Shown one piece after another: positions 8,497 through 15,900 of a stretch of 21,251 bases of DNA. Positions within the stretch are counted from its first letter, which is position 1; each line of letters opens with the position of its first letter. The DNA lies in assembly GCF_003334255.1 (NCBI RefSeq), contig NZ_QOWU01000069.1. One strand, 5' to 3'. The stretch is from Escherichia coli (GTDB lineage: Bacteria; Pseudomonadota; Gammaproteobacteria; Enterobacterales; Enterobacteriaceae). Under the pieces are notes generated by a model. That model was not told the origin of the DNA, did not search any database, and saw only the letters and a list, made by a program, of their open reading frames with translations. A program made the translations under genes and the position numbers.

Positions 8497-9158
8497 TGAT
8501 CAGGATTAGAGAGGTAAGTCATCACTATTCGCTGGGGCATAGCGCAGTCCCTGCGCTACAGAATATCTCGCTGGATATTGCTGCCGCTGAAATGGTGGCC
8601 ATTACCGGGCCTTCGGGCAGTGGAAAATCTACCTTATTAAATGTACTGGGATGTTTACTGACCCCACATTCGGGGGAGGTCTTTCTGCTGGAGAAGCTGA
8701 CGAATACGCTGAATGATTATCAGAAGTCGTTATTTCGGCGGGATAATATCAGCTTCATTTTTCAGTCGTTTAATCTATTACCGGTGCTATCGGTTGATGA
8801 AAATGTCGAGTATCCGTTGATTCTGCAGGGTGTCAGAAAAGTTGAACGTAAAAAACGTGTCGCAGAGATAGTCAATGATGTCGGTCTGATGGGATTTCGG
8901 CGGCATCGGCCGGACCAGTTATCCGGCGGTCAGCGACAGCGCGTCGCGATTGCCCGGGCGCTCATTACTGACCCGAAGTATGTGCTGGCGGATGAGCCGA
9001 CGGCTAATTTAGACAGTGAAAACAGCAAAATGATACTGAATCTTATTGCCGAGATGAATCACATACGCAAAACCGCATTTATTTTCGCTACCCATGACGC
9101 AAACGTATATAACTTCGCGCATCGTATGATCAATATGACTGACGGGAGAGTCATATGA
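8496..9158 (+). CDS. ABC transporter ATP-binding protein, LolD/MacB-type
   Basis: Walker A GPSGSGKST, ABC signature LSGGQRQRVAIARAL, Walker B VLADEPTANLD; start overlaps the previous stop (TGATG). Confidence 0.9.
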   Translation: MIRIREVSHHYSLGHSAVPALQNISLDIAAAEMVAITGPSGSGKSTLLNVLGCLLTPHSGEVFLLEKLTNTLNDYQKSLFRRDNISFIFQSFNLLPVLSVDENVEYPLILQGVRKVERKKRVAEIVNDVGLMGFRRHRPDQLSGGQRQRVAIARALITDPKYVLADEPTANLDSENSKMILNLIAEMNHIRKTAFIFATHDANVYNFAHRMINMTDGRVI

Positions 9159-10369
9159 CAACGGCATTGTTAGCGTTGCGCAATGTATTCAGAAATAAAC
9201 GCCGAACTTGCATTGTTTTCCTGTCCATCTCGGCAGCGATGAGCGCCATGATTGTGTTTGGCGGCTTTATTAATTACACCTTTGAAGGACTCCGGGAATC
9301 GACGATCAGAACCCAGCTGGGGCACTTTCAGATTGCCCAGCGCGGCTATTTCGAGCAGGGCGCATCGCAGAGCAGAGAGCTGCTCATTTCGTCACCTCAG
9401 CGGCTGGAAACAAAACTGCAAACGGTACCTCATATCAGCACGATCTCCAGAAGGCTTACCGGCTCCGGACTGATTACGGTTGGCCACGCTTCGCTGTCTG
9501 CCAAATTAATCGGTGTCATGCCGGAACGCGATGAGGAATTCTCGAATTATGAAATTGTGGTGGAAGGCAGGCAAATCGAACAGGGCCATGATGATGAGTG
9601 TGTGATTGGCAGCCAGCTGGCAAAAGGTCTCGGGGCGCAGGTGGGTGATACCGCCACCATACTCAGTTCGAGTTATGACGACGCAATCAACGCGGTAGAT
9701 TGTACCATTGTCGGTATCGTACGGACCCCGGCGAAAGAATATGACAAGGTTTATGTAAAAATGAACCTGGCTCATTTGCAGCGATTGCTTGATACCGAAA
9801 AAATTGAATATCTGGTGTTGTTACTGGATGAAACGGAAAACTTATCGATTGTTGCCAGCCAGCTGAGCACGGTAATAAGTGGTGAGTATGAGTACAGAGA
9901 GTGGACGCAGCTGGCAGAGTTTTATCAGGGCGTGGTTAACCTTTATACGTCAATATTCAGGCTTAGTTTCATCGTATTATCAATTATCGTCATTTTAAGT
10001 ATCACCAATACGATGAGCATGTCGGTTTTTGAACGCTTTCGCGAGATTGGCACATTGCGGGCAATGGGACAGACGCGGCTTTCCATCATCGGATTATTTG
10101 TAAGTGAAGGGATCATTATCGGTATCCTGGGCGGCATCATTGGCGTGCTGGCTGGAACAGGGTTTGCCCAGCTGATTAACCTCTCAGGGGGGATCGCGAT
10201 ACCTGCGCCACCGGGCATGTCCAGTGGCTATACTGCACGTATTAATATCGATTTCACTGTTATTTTATACTCTTTTATGATGTCGATGATAACTGCAACG
10301 GTATCTTCATTATATCCGGCCATTATTGCGGCCAGAAAAGATATTGTCGAGGCACTGACCCATATATGA
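9155..10369 (+). CDS. ABC transporter permease, FtsX-like (LolC/E / MacB-family)
   Basis: 404 aa; N-terminal transmembrane segment, large periplasmic domain, then three C-terminal transmembrane segments (LSFIVLSIIVILSI, IIIGILGGIIGVLAG, ILYSFMMSMITATV); ATG overlaps the ATPase stop (ATGA). Confidence 0.85.
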   Translation: MTTALLALRNVFRNKRRTCIVFLSISAAMSAMIVFGGFINYTFEGLRESTIRTQLGHFQIAQRGYFEQGASQSRELLISSPQRLETKLQTVPHISTISRRLTGSGLITVGHASLSAKLIGVMPERDEEFSNYEIVVEGRQIEQGHDDECVIGSQLAKGLGAQVGDTATILSSSYDDAINAVDCTIVGIVRTPAKEYDKVYVKMNLAHLQRLLDTEKIEYLVLLLDETENLSIVASQLSTVISGEYEYREWTQLAEFYQGVVNLYTSIFRLSFIVLSIIVILSITNTMSMSVFERFREIGTLRAMGQTRLSIIGLFVSEGIIIGILGGIIGVLAGTGFAQLINLSGGIAIPAPPGMSSGYTARINIDFTVILYSFMMSMITATVSSLYPAIIAARKDIVEALTHI

Positions 10370-11109
10370 AAAAACTGCTTACCATCTTCTTACTTTTATT
10401 GTTGTTTCCCACAGCATCAGTGACGGCTGAGAGCCCCGAGTTGACTCTTTCACCTGAAAAAATATTGACGCGGGTTGATACTATTCGTGCACCTGGCAGT
10501 GATTTTATTTTCACTGTTACAGCCGATGTAAATAATGGCGAGGTGATGAGTGAATACACCGTGAAAGTTAATAACAGCACGAAAAGTCTGGTGCTGTATA
10601 CCAAACCGGTAAAAAATAAAGGACGGGTAATCCTGTTAGATGACCGCAACATGTGGATATACATACCCGGTACCAGTCGGGCGATGAGAATATCCCCGCA
10701 ACAGCAACTGGTTGGCGCTGCCTCTAATGCCGATATTTCGCGAGTGGTCTTTAATATCGACTATCGTCCGCTATCTGCGGTGACAAAAAAAGAGCACGCT
10801 CGCGAGGTGATTGAGCTGGAGTTGCAGGCCAAAGAAGCCTCTGCGCCCTACAGAAAAGTGGTATTAATCGTCGATAAACACAGCTTTCAGCCGATTAAAG
10901 CAGATTTTTATGCACTGTCGGGGAAAAAATTAAAATCGATAGATTATCTTGAATATGCCCCCGTCCTGGGCGAGGTGCGTCCGGTTAAATTAGTGATTAG
11001 TGACAGTGTTAACACCAGCAAAACGACAACATTGACCTACAGCCATTTTTCACTGGAAAAAACGCCGGAAGCATTCTATCAGCCATCCTATCTTAACCGG
11101 GTAAGATAA
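10366..11109 (+). CDS. LolA-like periplasmic carrier (outer-membrane lipoprotein-sorting-protein family)
   Basis: Signal peptide MKKLLTIFLLLLLFPTASVTA without a lipobox; length and the RVILLDDRNMWIYIPG…RISP pattern match LolA-like proteins found next to ABC/FtsX exporters and in polyene-pigment clusters. Overlaps the permease stop. Confidence 0.5.
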   Translation: MKKLLTIFLLLLLFPTASVTAESPELTLSPEKILTRVDTIRAPGSDFIFTVTADVNNGEVMSEYTVKVNNSTKSLVLYTKPVKNKGRVILLDDRNMWIYIPGTSRAMRISPQQQLVGAASNADISRVVFNIDYRPLSAVTKKEHAREVIELELQAKEASAPYRKVVLIVDKHSFQPIKADFYALSGKKLKSIDYLEYAPVLGEVRPVKLVISDSVNTSKTTTLTYSHFSLEKTPEAFYQPSYLNRVR

Positions 11110-11130
11110 CAGGATAAGTCAGGAGACGTT

Positions 11131-12330
11131 ATGAGGGAGCTTGCTGGCAAACGACCATGGCGCGGATATGGATTATGCCTGCTGACGGCGCTCCCGCTGT
11201 TGGTCAATGCTGAGGGTGCTGATTTTGATTATCAGTTGCAAAGCGATCTGCGCAGCTATGTATATCAGGGAGAAAAATACAGAGATAGCCAGGATTTTAA
11301 TCTGTACTCTGACAATTTCGCGCAGCTCATGGTGAATTTCTTCTCCCGCTATCATTATCAGCGCCTTACGGTGCCCGTAAAAATAAGAGCCAGCGAAAAA
11401 TACTCTTTTGATAAACGTGATGATAAATCCGACCTGATAGTCGATGAGGCCTTTCTCGATTATTCTGCCACTGATACGCTTATTTTCAACCTTGGACGTA
11501 AACAGTTGGTTAATGGGGTGGCGATGGGAAATAACCCCACCGACTTTCTCAATGCTAATAAGTATCAGGATCGGCATCTGTCAGACCAGCAGCGCCGATC
11601 TGAGATAAAGGGGGATGATGTGGTTGGGGTCGTGAATTATTTTGCCTCATCATCTGTACAGTTTTACTATTTGCCGTCAGAAAATGCCAGCTGGCTCCAG
11701 TACGCCTGGAATATTCCATCAATGAATACCGATACCGGATTTTCCTGGTACCACGATGATATCAATGCTGTCGGTATCAACATCTCAACGACGTTTACGG
11801 ATAAGATTACGGGCTATATCGAGAATTCACTGTCTGATAAAAGAAACCGTTCGGTTATCGATGCGCAGGGGAATCTGCACAGTGAATCGGGTTTGTTTAC
11901 CGATCTGGTGCTGGGCTCACAATATACCTTTGATAACGGCATTAATATCAACGCAGAATACTGGTATAACCAACACGGCTATAGCAAAGAGGAGTATGAC
12001 GATATCTCTGCCGCTGTGGCTACGGGTAAAATAAAATACACTGATGCTTCCCGCTCTTTAAGTATGCGTAATCGGTATAAAAATAAACTGTTTTTTCGGC
12101 TGAGCGATATTCCGGTTAATGAAGATATCAGGCTGGAGCAGACCTTTATTCAGAGTTTAACGGATAATGGCTACTTTCTGCGGAGTACGGTTATTGGCCA
12201 GCTGTCGGATAATTCAACATTGCGTGTCAGCATGGAATTCTATCAGGGCAATGCGCAGAGCGAGTATGGTGGTAACCCAATCAATTACGGCGTGTTTTTG
12301 TCCTGGCAATATTTCTTGGAGAGTAACTGA
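11131..12330 (+). CDS. Putative outer-membrane (beta-rich) protein of unknown function
   Basis: AGGAG ribosome-binding site; signal peptide ending LLVNA-EGAD; composition rich in Y/N/S/T/G with alternating hydrophobic patterns; aromatic-rich C-terminal region (GVFLSWQYF). Confidence 0.45.
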   Translation: MRELAGKRPWRGYGLCLLTALPLLVNAEGADFDYQLQSDLRSYVYQGEKYRDSQDFNLYSDNFAQLMVNFFSRYHYQRLTVPVKIRASEKYSFDKRDDKSDLIVDEAFLDYSATDTLIFNLGRKQLVNGVAMGNNPTDFLNANKYQDRHLSDQQRRSEIKGDDVVGVVNYFASSSVQFYYLPSENASWLQYAWNIPSMNTDTGFSWYHDDINAVGINISTTFTDKITGYIENSLSDKRNRSVIDAQGNLHSESGLFTDLVLGSQYTFDNGININAEYWYNQHGYSKEEYDDISAAVATGKIKYTDASRSLSMRNRYKNKLFFRLSDIPVNEDIRLEQTFIQSLTDNGYFLRSTVIGQLSDNSTLRVSMEFYQGNAQSEYGGNPINYGVFLSWQYFLESN

Positions 12331-12332
12331 TT

Positions 12333-13166
12333 ATGGCATTTGCTTCGCATAACCCACAGCGTTATGACATTGGTGAGGATTGTTTCGCCCTTTATCATTC
12401 GGAATCACACAGTTTTGAGGTATTTCTTGGCAGTGAACGCGTGCCTTTCTTCTCAGCAGAAGTGGTAGATAAAATGCTCGGCGGCATGACAAAGATAGCG
12501 CATGGCGAGCTGGACTGTTCATCCGCACTCCATTTCTTTGTGTTGCGTTCCGCTTTCCCCGGTATTTTTAATCTTGGTGCCGATCTTGATCTGTTTCACT
12601 CGTTAGCCGCGGAGAAAAACAGAGATGAACTTCGTCTCTATGCTGACAAGTGCGTTGACCTTATCCATCACCTTTCTCACGGCATCAACAATGCGATAAC
12701 GACCGTGGCGCTGGTAGAAGGAAAATGTTTTGGCGGCGGCTTTGAGGCGGTACTGGCCTGCGATTACCTGATTGCCAGTGAGTCCGCTTTATTCTCGTTC
12801 CCCGAAATCAAGCTGGGTATTTTTCCCGGTATGGGAGCCGCGTCGGTTATGTCGCGGGTACTGAATAAAGGGGATTACCAGCGAATTTTCCTTTCGGGTG
12901 AGATGTTTTCCGCGCAGCAGCTCTTTGATATGGGCCTGGTGAGCCAGCTGGTTCCCGACGGGCAGGGAGAGGCGGTATTAAGGCAGTTCCTGAAGCGTAT
13001 GAATAGCGCCGCGTGTTATCAGTTATCCGCTATTTATAAATACAATAAGCGGCTACCAGTGTCGGAGCTGCGCTTTTTTGCTGAGCAGTGGGTAGAGGGG
13101 GTAATGGATTTAACCCGGCGGCAACTCGCGCTGATTGCTTATGCGGCAACGCAACAGAGAGAATAA
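12333..13166 (+). CDS. Enoyl-CoA hydratase/isomerase (crotonase-family) protein
   Basis: Crotonase core GKCFGGGFEAVLACDYLIASESALFSFPEIKLGIFPGMGA; starts 2 bp after the previous stop. Confidence 0.85.
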   Translation: MAFASHNPQRYDIGEDCFALYHSESHSFEVFLGSERVPFFSAEVVDKMLGGMTKIAHGELDCSSALHFFVLRSAFPGIFNLGADLDLFHSLAAEKNRDELRLYADKCVDLIHHLSHGINNAITTVALVEGKCFGGGFEAVLACDYLIASESALFSFPEIKLGIFPGMGAASVMSRVLNKGDYQRIFLSGEMFSAQQLFDMGLVSQLVPDGQGEAVLRQFLKRMNSAACYQLSAIYKYNKRLPVSELRFFAEQWVEGVMDLTRRQLALIAYAATQQRE

Positions 13167-13186
13167 GTACCAGGCGGGGTAGGCCC

Positions 13187-14480
13187 CTGAGGAATCCCCA
13201 GAAAAATGAGACAGGCATAGTGTGTTGTGATCTAATTGATTGCGCTAACAATTTCAAGGAAATCACCACTATGCCTGCGCGCTCATTATGCCGAAAATTT
13301 CTTAAAAATATACTGGAACCTCTGCATCTTTACCGTCAAAACGCACTGATTGACGCAACCAGTGCTGTAATAAATGGTGCATCTCTTACGCTTACCAGTA
13401 TCGGACGCCATTTAACTGGAACTGCATCGGTTAAAAATAAAATAAAGCGTATGGATAGACTGCTGGGGAATCCCCATCTGCAAAATGAGGTTCCCATAAT
13501 TTTTCAACGTGTTACGCAGAAAATTACGCAGGGAATGTCCCGTGCTGTGATACTCATTGACTGGAGTGCTTATCATGCTTCGCGTTTCCAGCTCCTACGG
13601 GCAAGCCTGGCATGTGATGGTCGCTCTTTACCATTGATGAGTTGTATCGTTCCATCATCACAGACGGCAAATGCTGAAGTGCATGAACGTTTTATTGGGT
13701 CGCTTGCTGAGTGCTTTACACCTGAAACTAATGTCATTGTTATTACGGATGCCGGTTTTCAGGGGCGATGGTTTCAACAGGTTAGTTCTCGTGGCTGGAC
13801 TTATATTTGTCGGGTACTGGGTAACCACTATTACAATGTTGGTGATGGGTGGGAAAAGGTACTGGATTCAGGAAAAAAGGCATCAACAACAGCAAGTTAT
13901 CTTGGTAAAGGTCTGCTGGGACGAAGTAAAGAAGCACAACACGAAGACTATTTTTACCTTTATAAAAGCAAACCTAAAGGCCGTAAATTTAAACGTTCAA
14001 AAGAAAGATCTACTAGGGCATCGGTGACAGCTAAAGCCCAGACAGCGGGGAAATCACCCTGGTTTATTTTTACAAATAGCACTGAATTTTCCCCTAAACA
14101 GGTGATGAGGTTATACAGCCGCAGAATGCAAATCGAGCAAAATTTCAGGGATGAAAAAAATCCTCGCTGGGGATTTGGGCTAAGGTTTGGAGCCAGCTAT
14201 TCAACTGAGCGGGTCACAGTGTTGAGCCTGATCGCGACGTTAGCCAGTATCATTATGTGGTTAAGTGGTTTCAGTCTTGAAAACAAGGGATACATCATAA
14301 ATATCAGGCAAATACAGTGAAACACAGGCGAGTCATTTCGTTGTTAAAGTTGGCGGAGAATGTATTTCGACATTCTCCGCTCATATTGAAAACCCTGTCG
14401 CTGGACTCGGGGTTGAAGAAATTACAGCAACGGTATATCGATATGATATTGGTTTACTGAGTTTTCTGGGGATCCCTCAG
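13187..14480 (+). mobile_element. IS4-family (IS10-like) insertion sequence, about 1.29 kb, apparently intact ends
   Basis: Left end CTGAGGAATCCCCAGAAAAA (from 13187) and inverted right end (reverse complement of 14461-14480 is CTGAGGGATCCCCAGAAAAC); both resemble the IS10 terminus CTGATGAATCCCC. Flanked by a direct duplication GGTAGGCCC (13178-13186 and 14482-14490; boundary ambiguous by 1 bp). Confidence 0.8.
13271..14320 (+). CDS. IS4-family (IS10-like) DDE transposase
   Basis: ATG at 13271 (MPARSL...); motifs shared with the IS10 transposase: IKRMDRLLGN, ILIDWS, LRASLACDGRS, TDAGF, LYKSKPKGRK, RRMQIEQNFRD. The ORF-track start at 13088 is an upstream extension across the IS end. Product is shorter than the IS10 transposase; about 160 bp with a hairpin follow the stop. 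Confidence 0.85.
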   Translation: MPARSLCRKFLKNILEPLHLYRQNALIDATSAVINGASLTLTSIGRHLTGTASVKNKIKRMDRLLGNPHLQNEVPIIFQRVTQKITQGMSRAVILIDWSAYHASRFQLLRASLACDGRSLPLMSCIVPSSQTANAEVHERFIGSLAECFTPETNVIVITDAGFQGRWFQQVSSRGWTYICRVLGNHYYNVGDGWEKVLDSGKKASTTASYLGKGLLGRSKEAQHEDYFYLYKSKPKGRKFKRSKERSTRASVTAKAQTAGKSPWFIFTNSTEFSPKQVMRLYSRRMQIEQNFRDEKNPRWGFGLRFGASYSTERVTVLSLIATLASIIMWLSGFSLENKGYIINIRQIQ

Positions 14481-14489
14481 GGGTAGGCC

Positions 14490-14744
14490 CCGCAGCAGCG
14501 GCTTGCTTTGGGATTGTCTCGCTGCCAGCCGCTCAGTTGCAGGGAGGCCGCGTATTGTTTCTTCGATTGCGTACAGTTCGCCGATACGTTTCAGGGCTTC
14601 CTCTGCTGTGGATGCACTGGTTGCCGGGCTAAAACTGGGGTAACGGAAATTTCGGCGGTTCCGGCGTAGAACCCCGATATGTTCCGAACCGTCGCGGCCG
14701 TCTGGTTTGCTCATAGTTTTACCGGGGCATAAAATATGGTGTCT
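14490..14744 (-). pseudogene. IS66-family transposase (TnpC-like) internal fragment
   Basis: Minus-strand translation …HIGVLRRNRRNF…EEALKRIGELYAIEETIRGLPATERLAARQSQSKPLL resembles the conserved post-DDE region of IS66 TnpC (LYAIE…IRG…ERL…RQ…S.PL); only about 80 codons, cut at the lower end by the IS10-like insertion. Confidence 0.5.
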
Positions 14745-14777
14745 TAGAAAGATACTGAGGGCTTTAAGGATTAATAC

Positions 14778-15272
14778 ATGAGTGAATTTTATTCAAGGGC
14801 AGCAACTGTGGCAGACATGCCATTTATCATGGGTGAGTTCGAAGACGGCGCACGCAAAGGTCACTTCTACGAAGAGGTCCTCACATCAAATGTTGGTGAA
14901 ACCTTTGAACAGCAGCTCAGGCTGGCAATCAAGGCGAACGAGCAGGGCCAATACACCGGGCATTTTATCTACATCCTGCTGCGACGTTCTGATGACAAAA
15001 AAATAGGACTAATCTGGTTCTGTGACGTACGCGATCCAACCGGTGTGCCACGACTTGAGCTCCGTGCCGTCAGTATTGTCAAAGAGCTTCGCGGGAAAGG
15101 CTATGGGTCAATGCTTGTGTCCGAAATGCTCGAATCAAACCCTGGCTGGCCAATGATGGCGAGGTGCTACGTCAAATCCTCGCAAATGGCCGACATGCTA
15201 AAACGCAGAGGTTTTTACCTTTTTGGCACGTCACCCAAAGGCACGCAGATGCTGTTTCGCGACCCAAAGTAA
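14778..15272 (+). CDS. GNAT-family N-acetyltransferase
   Basis: 164 aa; AAGGA ribosome-binding site; acetyl-CoA binding motif A-like LRGKGYGSMLVSEML; substrate unknown. Confidence 0.7.
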   Translation: MSEFYSRAATVADMPFIMGEFEDGARKGHFYEEVLTSNVGETFEQQLRLAIKANEQGQYTGHFIYILLRRSDDKKIGLIWFCDVRDPTGVPRLELRAVSIVKELRGKGYGSMLVSEMLESNPGWPMMARCYVKSSQMADMLKRRGFYLFGTSPKGTQMLFRDPK

Positions 15273-15900
15273 AAGATACTGGACCATGCTGGCCGACCAG
15301 AACAGGATAAAGCCAGCATCGACACACTGACTCGCTATGCCCATGCGTGCAGTATCAAAAAACTGTATCACTGGTATAATCTGGTAAAGAGCATATTGAG
15401 AACTTATCATGTCGTCACGCAACTCTATACATGATTTTATAATGCTGCTCCCGGCGCTGCTGTTAGTTGGGTGGTTAGTTTTGGTGATAATTCTCATGTT
15501 TAGGGATGATAAATGTGACAAAACTTACCGTGAAGGTTCGTTTCCCGAATTTATTTGTCTCCATTCTGATCGCTCGTCACTTCGAGAAACCGATTCTGAG
15601 AGACTCATTGTCAAATATACAGAAATACAATCACGAAAATAGGTAAAACCAATAATACTATAGCTAAAAAAATAGTTACTTTTCTGTATCACCCTGTCTC
15701 TCTCTGCTTTTTCATGGCTACTGTCATATTTATGTCTGTTGCGCGGTTTTATCTGTGTATATAAAATACATCTGTATTCATTGTTATCTGAAAATTTGCG
15801 TATGCTGATAAAAAATCCGATTTCTTATTTCCATATTGGCACATTTTTATTATCAGGAAAAAAACGTCATCTTCTGGAATACTGGAAAGCAGAAGTTATC

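Follow-up and report, generated by a model that had tools for sequence, protein, structure and literature searches.

The question raised by this locus was whether a short sequence directly downstream of a GNAT acetyltransferase gene is a relic of a ParE-like toxin gene, and with it of a decayed toxin-antitoxin (TA) locus. The window, which here means the whole 21,251-nucleotide stretch of Escherichia coli DNA that was analysed (contig NZ_QOWU01000069.1), showed 100% identity to NZ_CP060058.1, an IncK2/Z plasmid of E. coli strain G8. The features on which the argument depends are as follows, and those annotated by PGAP are marked.

13271-14460: IS4-family transposase, frameshifted (PGAP)
14484-14624: IS66 transposase fragment (PGAP)
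14675-15274, + strand: GNAT cassette, adjoining the scar
14778-15272, + strand: GNAT gene, 164 aa (PGAP), within the cassette
15275-15307, + strand: 5' remnant of yacB (ParE-family toxin), with homology to the first ~14 yacB codons
15308-15379, + strand: 3' remnant of an XRE-HTH antitoxin gene, the last ~24 codons and the stop codon, from a toxin-first Gp49/HigB-like module
15380-15750, + strand: conserved I-complex/IncF backbone segment, right of the cassette site
from 15802: serine acetyltransferase gene (PGAP)
right of 15802: ProQ/FinO gene, recombinase fragment, yacA, yacB and truncated 3'-5' exonuclease gene, yacC (PGAP)
18004-18273, + strand: yacA antitoxin gene, intact; a reference copy outside the scar
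18270-18551, + strand: yacB toxin gene, intact (PGAP start 18273), with the 16-mer discussed below recurring at its nt 15-30

No PGAP feature was present between the GNAT gene and 15802, and the segment between the GNAT cassette and the backbone was left without annotation in every record. Overall, 14675-15750 was found to be a mosaic of four pieces: the GNAT cassette, the yacB stub, the antitoxin tail and the backbone. The intact gene at 18270-18551 is annotated in public records as the toxin of the yacAB type II TA pair. Its product matched Pfam ParE_toxin (PF05016) with an E-value of 4.7e-17 and solved ParE structures with an E-value of 3.5e-8 in a PDB sequence search, and these matches justify the label ParE-like.

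Several other features of the window were recorded around these genes. Positions 13184-14483 were occupied by an IS4-family element, which has terminal inverted repeats of 22 bp (21/22) and whose transposase is frameshifted; it is inserted beside the IS66 transposase fragment (14484-14624). Where other plasmids have kept a flank to the left of the GNAT cassette, this plasmid has the two IS sequences instead. Upstream of the IS elements, a plasmid-borne biosynthetic cluster at 1970-13166 carried genes for an SDR, an ACP, a FabZ-like protein, a ketosynthase and a PfkB kinase, together with N-acyl amino acid synthase (FeeM-domain), ABC transporter, LolA-like and crotonase genes, which is uncommon cargo for an IncK2/Z plasmid. 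On the right, the recombinase fragment, yacAB and the truncated yacC were bracketed by 48-nt direct repeats with 89.6% identity (17480-17527 and 18939-18985), the first copy of which holds a perfect 22-nt palindrome, AACCGTACAATATTGTACGGTT (17486-17507). They may serve a recombinase or resolution system as its sites, or mark the borders of modules. An exact 19-nt direct repeat, TGTTATTATTTTTGAGATG, was also present at 17148-17166 and 20713-20731, one copy where a small hypothetical gene begins and the other within a Tn3-family transposase fragment.

The initial annotation had linked the segment to yacB through a 16-nt exact match between 15279 and 18284. This match was confirmed, the 16-mer CTGGACCATGCTGGCC having one copy at each position and both copies lying on the + strand. 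The flanking similarity claimed with it was real but short, with 27/32 identical positions in the best ungapped alignment (15276-15307 against 18281-18312) and AGATA added upstream across a 2-nt gap in the gapped alignment. The resemblance of the local translation to the toxin N-terminus was also correct (YWTMLADQNRIK in the stub against FWTMLASQDRKR in yacB; with the preceding residue, (Y)WTMLADQNRIK against (F)WTMLASQDRKR). Similarity thus ran past the seed to ~33 nt, the tblastn match to YacB ending with YWTMLADQNR, and blastn and tblastn of 14300-15800 showed no further yacB or yacA homology beyond this stub. A direct 16-mer repeat of any sequence arose in 7% of dinucleotide-preserving shuffles of the window, and the self-BLAST score of the stub and yacB pair (36.5 bits) was reached by 6.7% of them. 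These frequencies bear out the original caution that a single 16-mer in a 21-kb window is not unlikely by chance; inside the window alone the repeat is only marginally above chance and is weak evidence.

The relationship was settled by comparison of the stub with yacB in other plasmids. Counting from the ATG at 18270, the stub opens with GATA, equivalent to nt 9-12 of yacB, and continues at 15279-15307 with the equivalent of nt 15-43 (codons 5-15). It differs from the gene by a 2-nt loss, 3-4 substitutions and the absence of the start codon. Identity was 25/29 with the yacB of the window itself, 26/29 with the allele of pCMY-136 and 29/29 between intact yacB and the stub CTGGACCATGCTGGCCAGCCAGGACAGGA at the same place in pEA7_1, which is likewise linked to the GNAT gene. 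In pLAO40 and pMS1718-3 yacA is intact, and overlapping its end by the normal 1-4 nt comes the complete yacB start, which is fused to the HTH-gene tail at the same point as in the window (ATGATGGAGATATTCTGGACC...GGCCAGCCAAAACAGAAT|AAAGCCAGCATCG; the sequence behind yacA reads ATGATGGAGATATTCTGGACCATGCTGGCCAGCCAAAACAGAAT|AAAGCCAGCATCGGCACACTGACTCGC...). The junction was also found in pRHBSTW-00176_3 and pA17EC0191-4, which keep yacB from nt 7 only (36/39 against yacB in the former) behind a different RHH-ParE cassette and a hypothetical gene. Homology, context and these intermediates show the descent of 15275-15307 from the 5' end of yacB. What is left is 33 of 282 nt with ~11 homologous codons, where a functional toxin would be a complete ORF of ~90 aa with the PF05016 fold.

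The remainder of the segment came from a different gene. Positions 15308 to 15363/7 matched the 3' ends of genes annotated as 'helix-turn-helix transcriptional regulator' with 96.4% identity over 56 nt (locus L003, positions 2310-2365), 93.4% over 61 nt (locus L004) and 85.5% (locus L005). In all three loci the HTH gene overlaps the end of an upstream toxin gene of the RelE/ParE family, and an intact pair of this kind matched Pfam Gp49 (E 6e-23) and HTH_3 (E 2e-13). The toxin of the intact pair matches Gp49 (PF05973) and not HigB_toxin (PF05015), and one record calls the antitoxin 'HigA1'; 'HigBA-like' is used here for gene order and fold class only. The homology to the 3' ends of genes which stand behind toxins of the Gp49/RelE families shows that 15308-15379 is the remnant of a HigA-like XRE-HTH gene by descent. 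A 1-nt deletion was present near 15363, and the repaired reading was KASIDTLTRYAHACSIKK(P)VSLV and a stop, against KASIDTLTRYAHACGIKKPVITLY and a stop in the intact gene. The remnant therefore extends to the old stop codon at 15377-15379, which adjoins the conserved downstream backbone.

The two parts meet at 15307|15308, where codon 14/15 of yacB is joined to codon ~69 of the HTH gene. Inspection of the plasmid alignments by eye showed no microhomology at this point beyond possibly 1 nt. Neither of the nearby GCCAGC repeats has been lost, and a microhomology-mediated deletion was unsupported.

Taken together, we put the probability at roughly 90% that 15275-15379 is a composite scar of two different type II TA operons, in which a 5' stub of yacB is fused to the 3' tail of an HTH antitoxin gene. 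The proposal that a decayed TA locus had left the 5' remnant of a ParE-like toxin gene beside the GNAT gene is therefore supported, given the truncated yacB behind an intact yacA in the sister plasmids. The idea of one second, decayed TA locus held for yacB and failed on the count, as two TA loci are scarred here. Similarly, the extent given at first, 15279-15330, lies within a real scar which is longer, and 15308-15330 derives from the HTH antitoxin gene; the residues K P A S T H and the stop at the end of the original translation are the 3' end of the antitoxin gene read out of frame.

A search for the junction showed that it was present in 17 of 72,556 PLSDB plasmids and in 13 of 5426 complete E. 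coli genomes. The junction-bearing PLSDB plasmids span IncK2/Z, IncI-gamma/K1 and IncFIA/FIC types, and six of them carry the junction without a GNAT gene. Three kinds of cassette were found upstream of it, namely yacA, another RHH-ParE pair and the GNAT module. In the GNAT-linked plasmids pUR5854 and pEA7_1, a 31-nt piece of yacA (the promoter-proximal region and the first 14 nt, matching window positions 17987-18017) lies upstream of the GNAT cassette, at positions 1937-1967 of locus L008 (pUR5854) and 637-667 of locus L014 (pEA7_1). With a yacA stub on one side and a yacB stub on the other, the GNAT cassette in these two plasmids is embedded in a gutted yacAB operon, and the former yacAB promoter may drive the GNAT gene there. 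The stub itself varied by lineage (GCCGACCAGAAC in the window, GTCAGCCCGGAC in pRHBSTW-00176_3, GCCAGCCAAAAC in pLAO40 and a deletion of 13 nt within the stub of pUR5854), and the differences between lineages were concentrated in the yacB-derived part of the scar. Such lineage-specific substitutions and deletions are what neutral drift would be expected to produce.

The backbone from ~15380 onward was shared by more than 1800 plasmids, and different cassettes meet it at different depths. pCMY-136, with an intact yacABC, meets the common backbone at 15365 and keeps the last 15 nt of the HTH gene, and pRHB10-C04_2, with another stabilisation pair, meets it at 15347 and keeps 33 nt. In every lineage examined a 3'-terminal piece of this gene was retained, 15, 33 or 72 nt long. 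The nested leftovers of one antitoxin 3' end argue that the Gp49/HTH module was the oldest occupant of the site and was overwritten to a varying extent by the cassettes that came later.

A history consistent with these observations would begin with a backbone that held a Gp49/HTH (HigBA-like) module just downstream of the replication region (I-complex, IncF). A yacAB module would then have come to lie upstream of it, and an illegitimate deletion or recombination would have fused yacB codon 14/15 to HTH codon ~69, killing the toxin and leaving yacA an orphan, which is the state in pLAO40 and pMS1718-3. In one sublineage a GNAT cassette of ~0.6-0.85 kb would have taken the place of yacA and of the initial 8 nt of yacB, and its arrival would have left the 33-nt stub right behind the GNAT stop codon. 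Finally, in the present plasmid, IS66 and IS4 insertions would have removed the left flank, including the yacA stub. Among PLSDB plasmids and complete E. coli genomes, no intact HTH antitoxin gene of the Gp49/HTH module was found directly upstream of the backbone at 15380, all full-length matches carrying the scar, and no record showed yacAB followed in cis by the Gp49/HTH module. Since neither an intact ancestor nor this in-cis arrangement was found, we infer the order of events and the route to the fusion, by deletion in cis or by illegitimate recombination between plasmids. The order in p510016_84 (an intact yacAB, the GNAT cassette and then the scar) requires an extra recombination step in this history.

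Downstream of the scar, 15409-15642 on the + strand holds a 77-aa ORF that carries no annotation and has a hydrophobic helix at its N-terminus (MSSRNSIHDFIMLLPALLLVGWLVLVIILMF...). It was conserved at full length in most of the related plasmids examined and truncated in pLAO40, p510016_84 and pMS1718-3, and no NCBIfam or PADLOC match was found for it. An extended -10-like sequence, TGGTATAAT, was located at 15372-15380, in the final codons of the HTH remnant and ~30 nt upstream of the ORF, and it was kept in all lineages, even those with only 15 nt of the remnant left. A larger scenario can be drawn from this, in which the site downstream of the replication region (I-complex/IncF) is a recurrent cassette-exchange hotspot where the Gp49/HTH module, yacAB, other RHH-ParE pairs and then the GNAT cassette overwrote one another. 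The result would be a stratified TA 'graveyard', its right limit held by selection for the TGGTATAAT promoter, which would have arisen within the final codons of the earliest antitoxin gene and would drive the gene of a 77-aa membrane protein. We regard this scenario as speculative and rather unlikely; if it is true, part of the scar would have been exapted, and not the parE-like part, as the putative -10 role touches the HTH tail (15372-15380) alone.

With respect to activity, the anatomy and drift of the scar suggest that it is non-functional, and no activity is expected of it; for TA function the plasmid has a separate, intact yacAB at 18004-18551. Co-option of the scar could have taken the form of a 3' UTR or terminator serving the GNAT gene, of a promoter region serving the 77-aa ORF, or of a short peptide, encoded by ORF 15223-15330 or reading MLADQNRIKPASTH from the ATG at 15286. 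It would be favoured by the retention of TGGTATAAT in every lineage and by an 8-nt inverted repeat which the junction created (ATGCTGGC at 15286-15293 and GCCAGCAT at 15312-15319), the main predicted hairpin of the scar. However, the fold of 15260-15410 was not significant (z = -1.2), and no match to the scar was found in Rfam at a relaxed E-value. A consensus scan of 15275-15379 found no promoter- or terminator-like site on the + strand, and the sole site, inside the yacB stub, was a minus-strand terminator-like stem of 5 pairs (15294-15282); promoter- and terminator-like site counts equalled the shuffle expectation (2 against 2.2 and 1 against 1.1). The stub encodes no domain and directly follows the GNAT TAA, and the yacB frame stops after 16 codons, ~11 of them toxin-derived, with neither a ribosome-binding site nor a start codon in that frame. 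The peptides differ by lineage, the yacB-derived part is free to vary, with some of it deleted in pUR5854, and a promoter role would involve 15372-15380 only and not the parE-like segment. Co-option is thus improbable.

A recent copy within the plasmid, by which the stub was duplicated or gene-converted from the plasmid's own yacB at 18270, could have been suggested by the presence of two copies 3 kb apart on the same strand. The stub is nearer to the allele of pCMY-136 (GACAGGA) than to its own neighbour (GACCGGA), and the identical junction occurs in plasmids without a second yacAB (pUR5854, pLAO40, pRHBSTW-00176_3 and pEA7_1), which places the junction before the arrangement of the present plasmid. 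This origin is very unlikely.

GNAT toxins paired with RHH antitoxins exist, and the GNAT gene could in principle be the toxin of such a pair (TacAT/AtaRT-type) with the fragment as the leftover of its partner locus, as might also be read from its position in pUR5854 and pEA7_1, where the stubs of yacA and yacB enclose it exactly. The cassette is common to IncFIB plasmids of Enterobacter, Citrobacter and Raoultella at 92% identity, and the homology to these modules ends at 15274, two bases past the stop codon; locus L002 matched 14710-15274 at 92.4% and then diverged into its own terminator-like hairpin, and pUR5854, pEA7_1 and p510016_84 matched the cassette from 14675. Known toxins of this type (TacT/AtaT/KacT) have ~160-175 aa and an upstream RHH/DUF1778 gene, but the GNAT protein showed only weak generic GNAT matches in Pfam (best E 2.4e-5), no NCBIfam or PADLOC family, and generic GNATs in the PDB sequence search (best E 0.37), none of which is a TA acetyltransferase toxin. 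No RHH or DUF1778 ORF was present upstream of the gene in the window, and in the Enterobacter plasmids the upstream gene encodes a 214-aa hypothetical protein. An RHH antitoxin remnant near the GNAT gene, which the initial annotation had envisaged, was also absent from the window: no yacA homology was found in 14300-15275 at the DNA or protein level, and upstream of 14675 are the IS66 and IS4 fragments, so that GNAT and IS sequences stand where the cognate RHH gene of a type II TA operon would be. A yacA stub, of 31 nt, was kept in pUR5854 and pEA7_1 only. Moreover, the fragment is from yacB, with a ParE fold, and so from a toxin gene rather than an antitoxin gene. No support for the GNAT-toxin reading was found and it is highly improbable.

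Coincidence of the 16-mer and its flanks without common descent, for which only the shuffle frequencies given above and the end of the similarity at ~33 nt speak, is refuted, because the stub at the same locus in pEA7_1 is identical to yacB at 29 of 29 positions and the stub in pLAO40 and pMS1718-3 runs without a break from yacA and the yacB start codon.

Compared with known systems, the composite scar shares the 5' end of yacB with the yacAB pairs (YacA, an RHH antitoxin, and YacB, a ParE-family toxin) of ColIb-P9, R64, pWR100 and IncF plasmids, and differs from an intact pair in that only ~33 of 282 nt are left, with no start codon, yacA or ParE fold. An inactive yacB with an orphan yacA has already been described in the Shigella pINV plasmid (PMC9455713, PMC7354431); there yacB was inactivated through a frameshift, whereas here the loss came through fusion or deletion. 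The second part is 85-96% identical to the last ~24 antitoxin codons of the Gp49 and XRE-HTH modules of IncF/IncU plasmids of Enterobacteriaceae (e.g. WP_000493283.1 / WP_000780223.1), but it holds only a frameshifted C-terminal tail past most of HTH_3 and is accompanied by no toxin gene. In its nested endpoints, its drift between lineages and the varied cassettes between conserved flanks, the scar resembles the pseudogene fragments and recombination scars at other plasmid cassette sites, from which it differs notably in nothing; it is merely unannotated.

We regard the scar as an ordinary fossil of recombination, left by the repeated exchange of cassettes on E. coli plasmids; TA fragments at variable plasmid sites are commonplace. 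Its importance is limited to annotation and plasmid history, with no new system or mechanism involved. Within that history it is a useful lineage marker, since one junction ties together 17 PLSDB plasmids, and it indicates that the GNAT cassette would have landed in a yacAB operon which was already inactivated. Finally, it documents that yacA has been orphaned by truncation of its toxin gene on E. coli plasmids too, besides those of Shigella.
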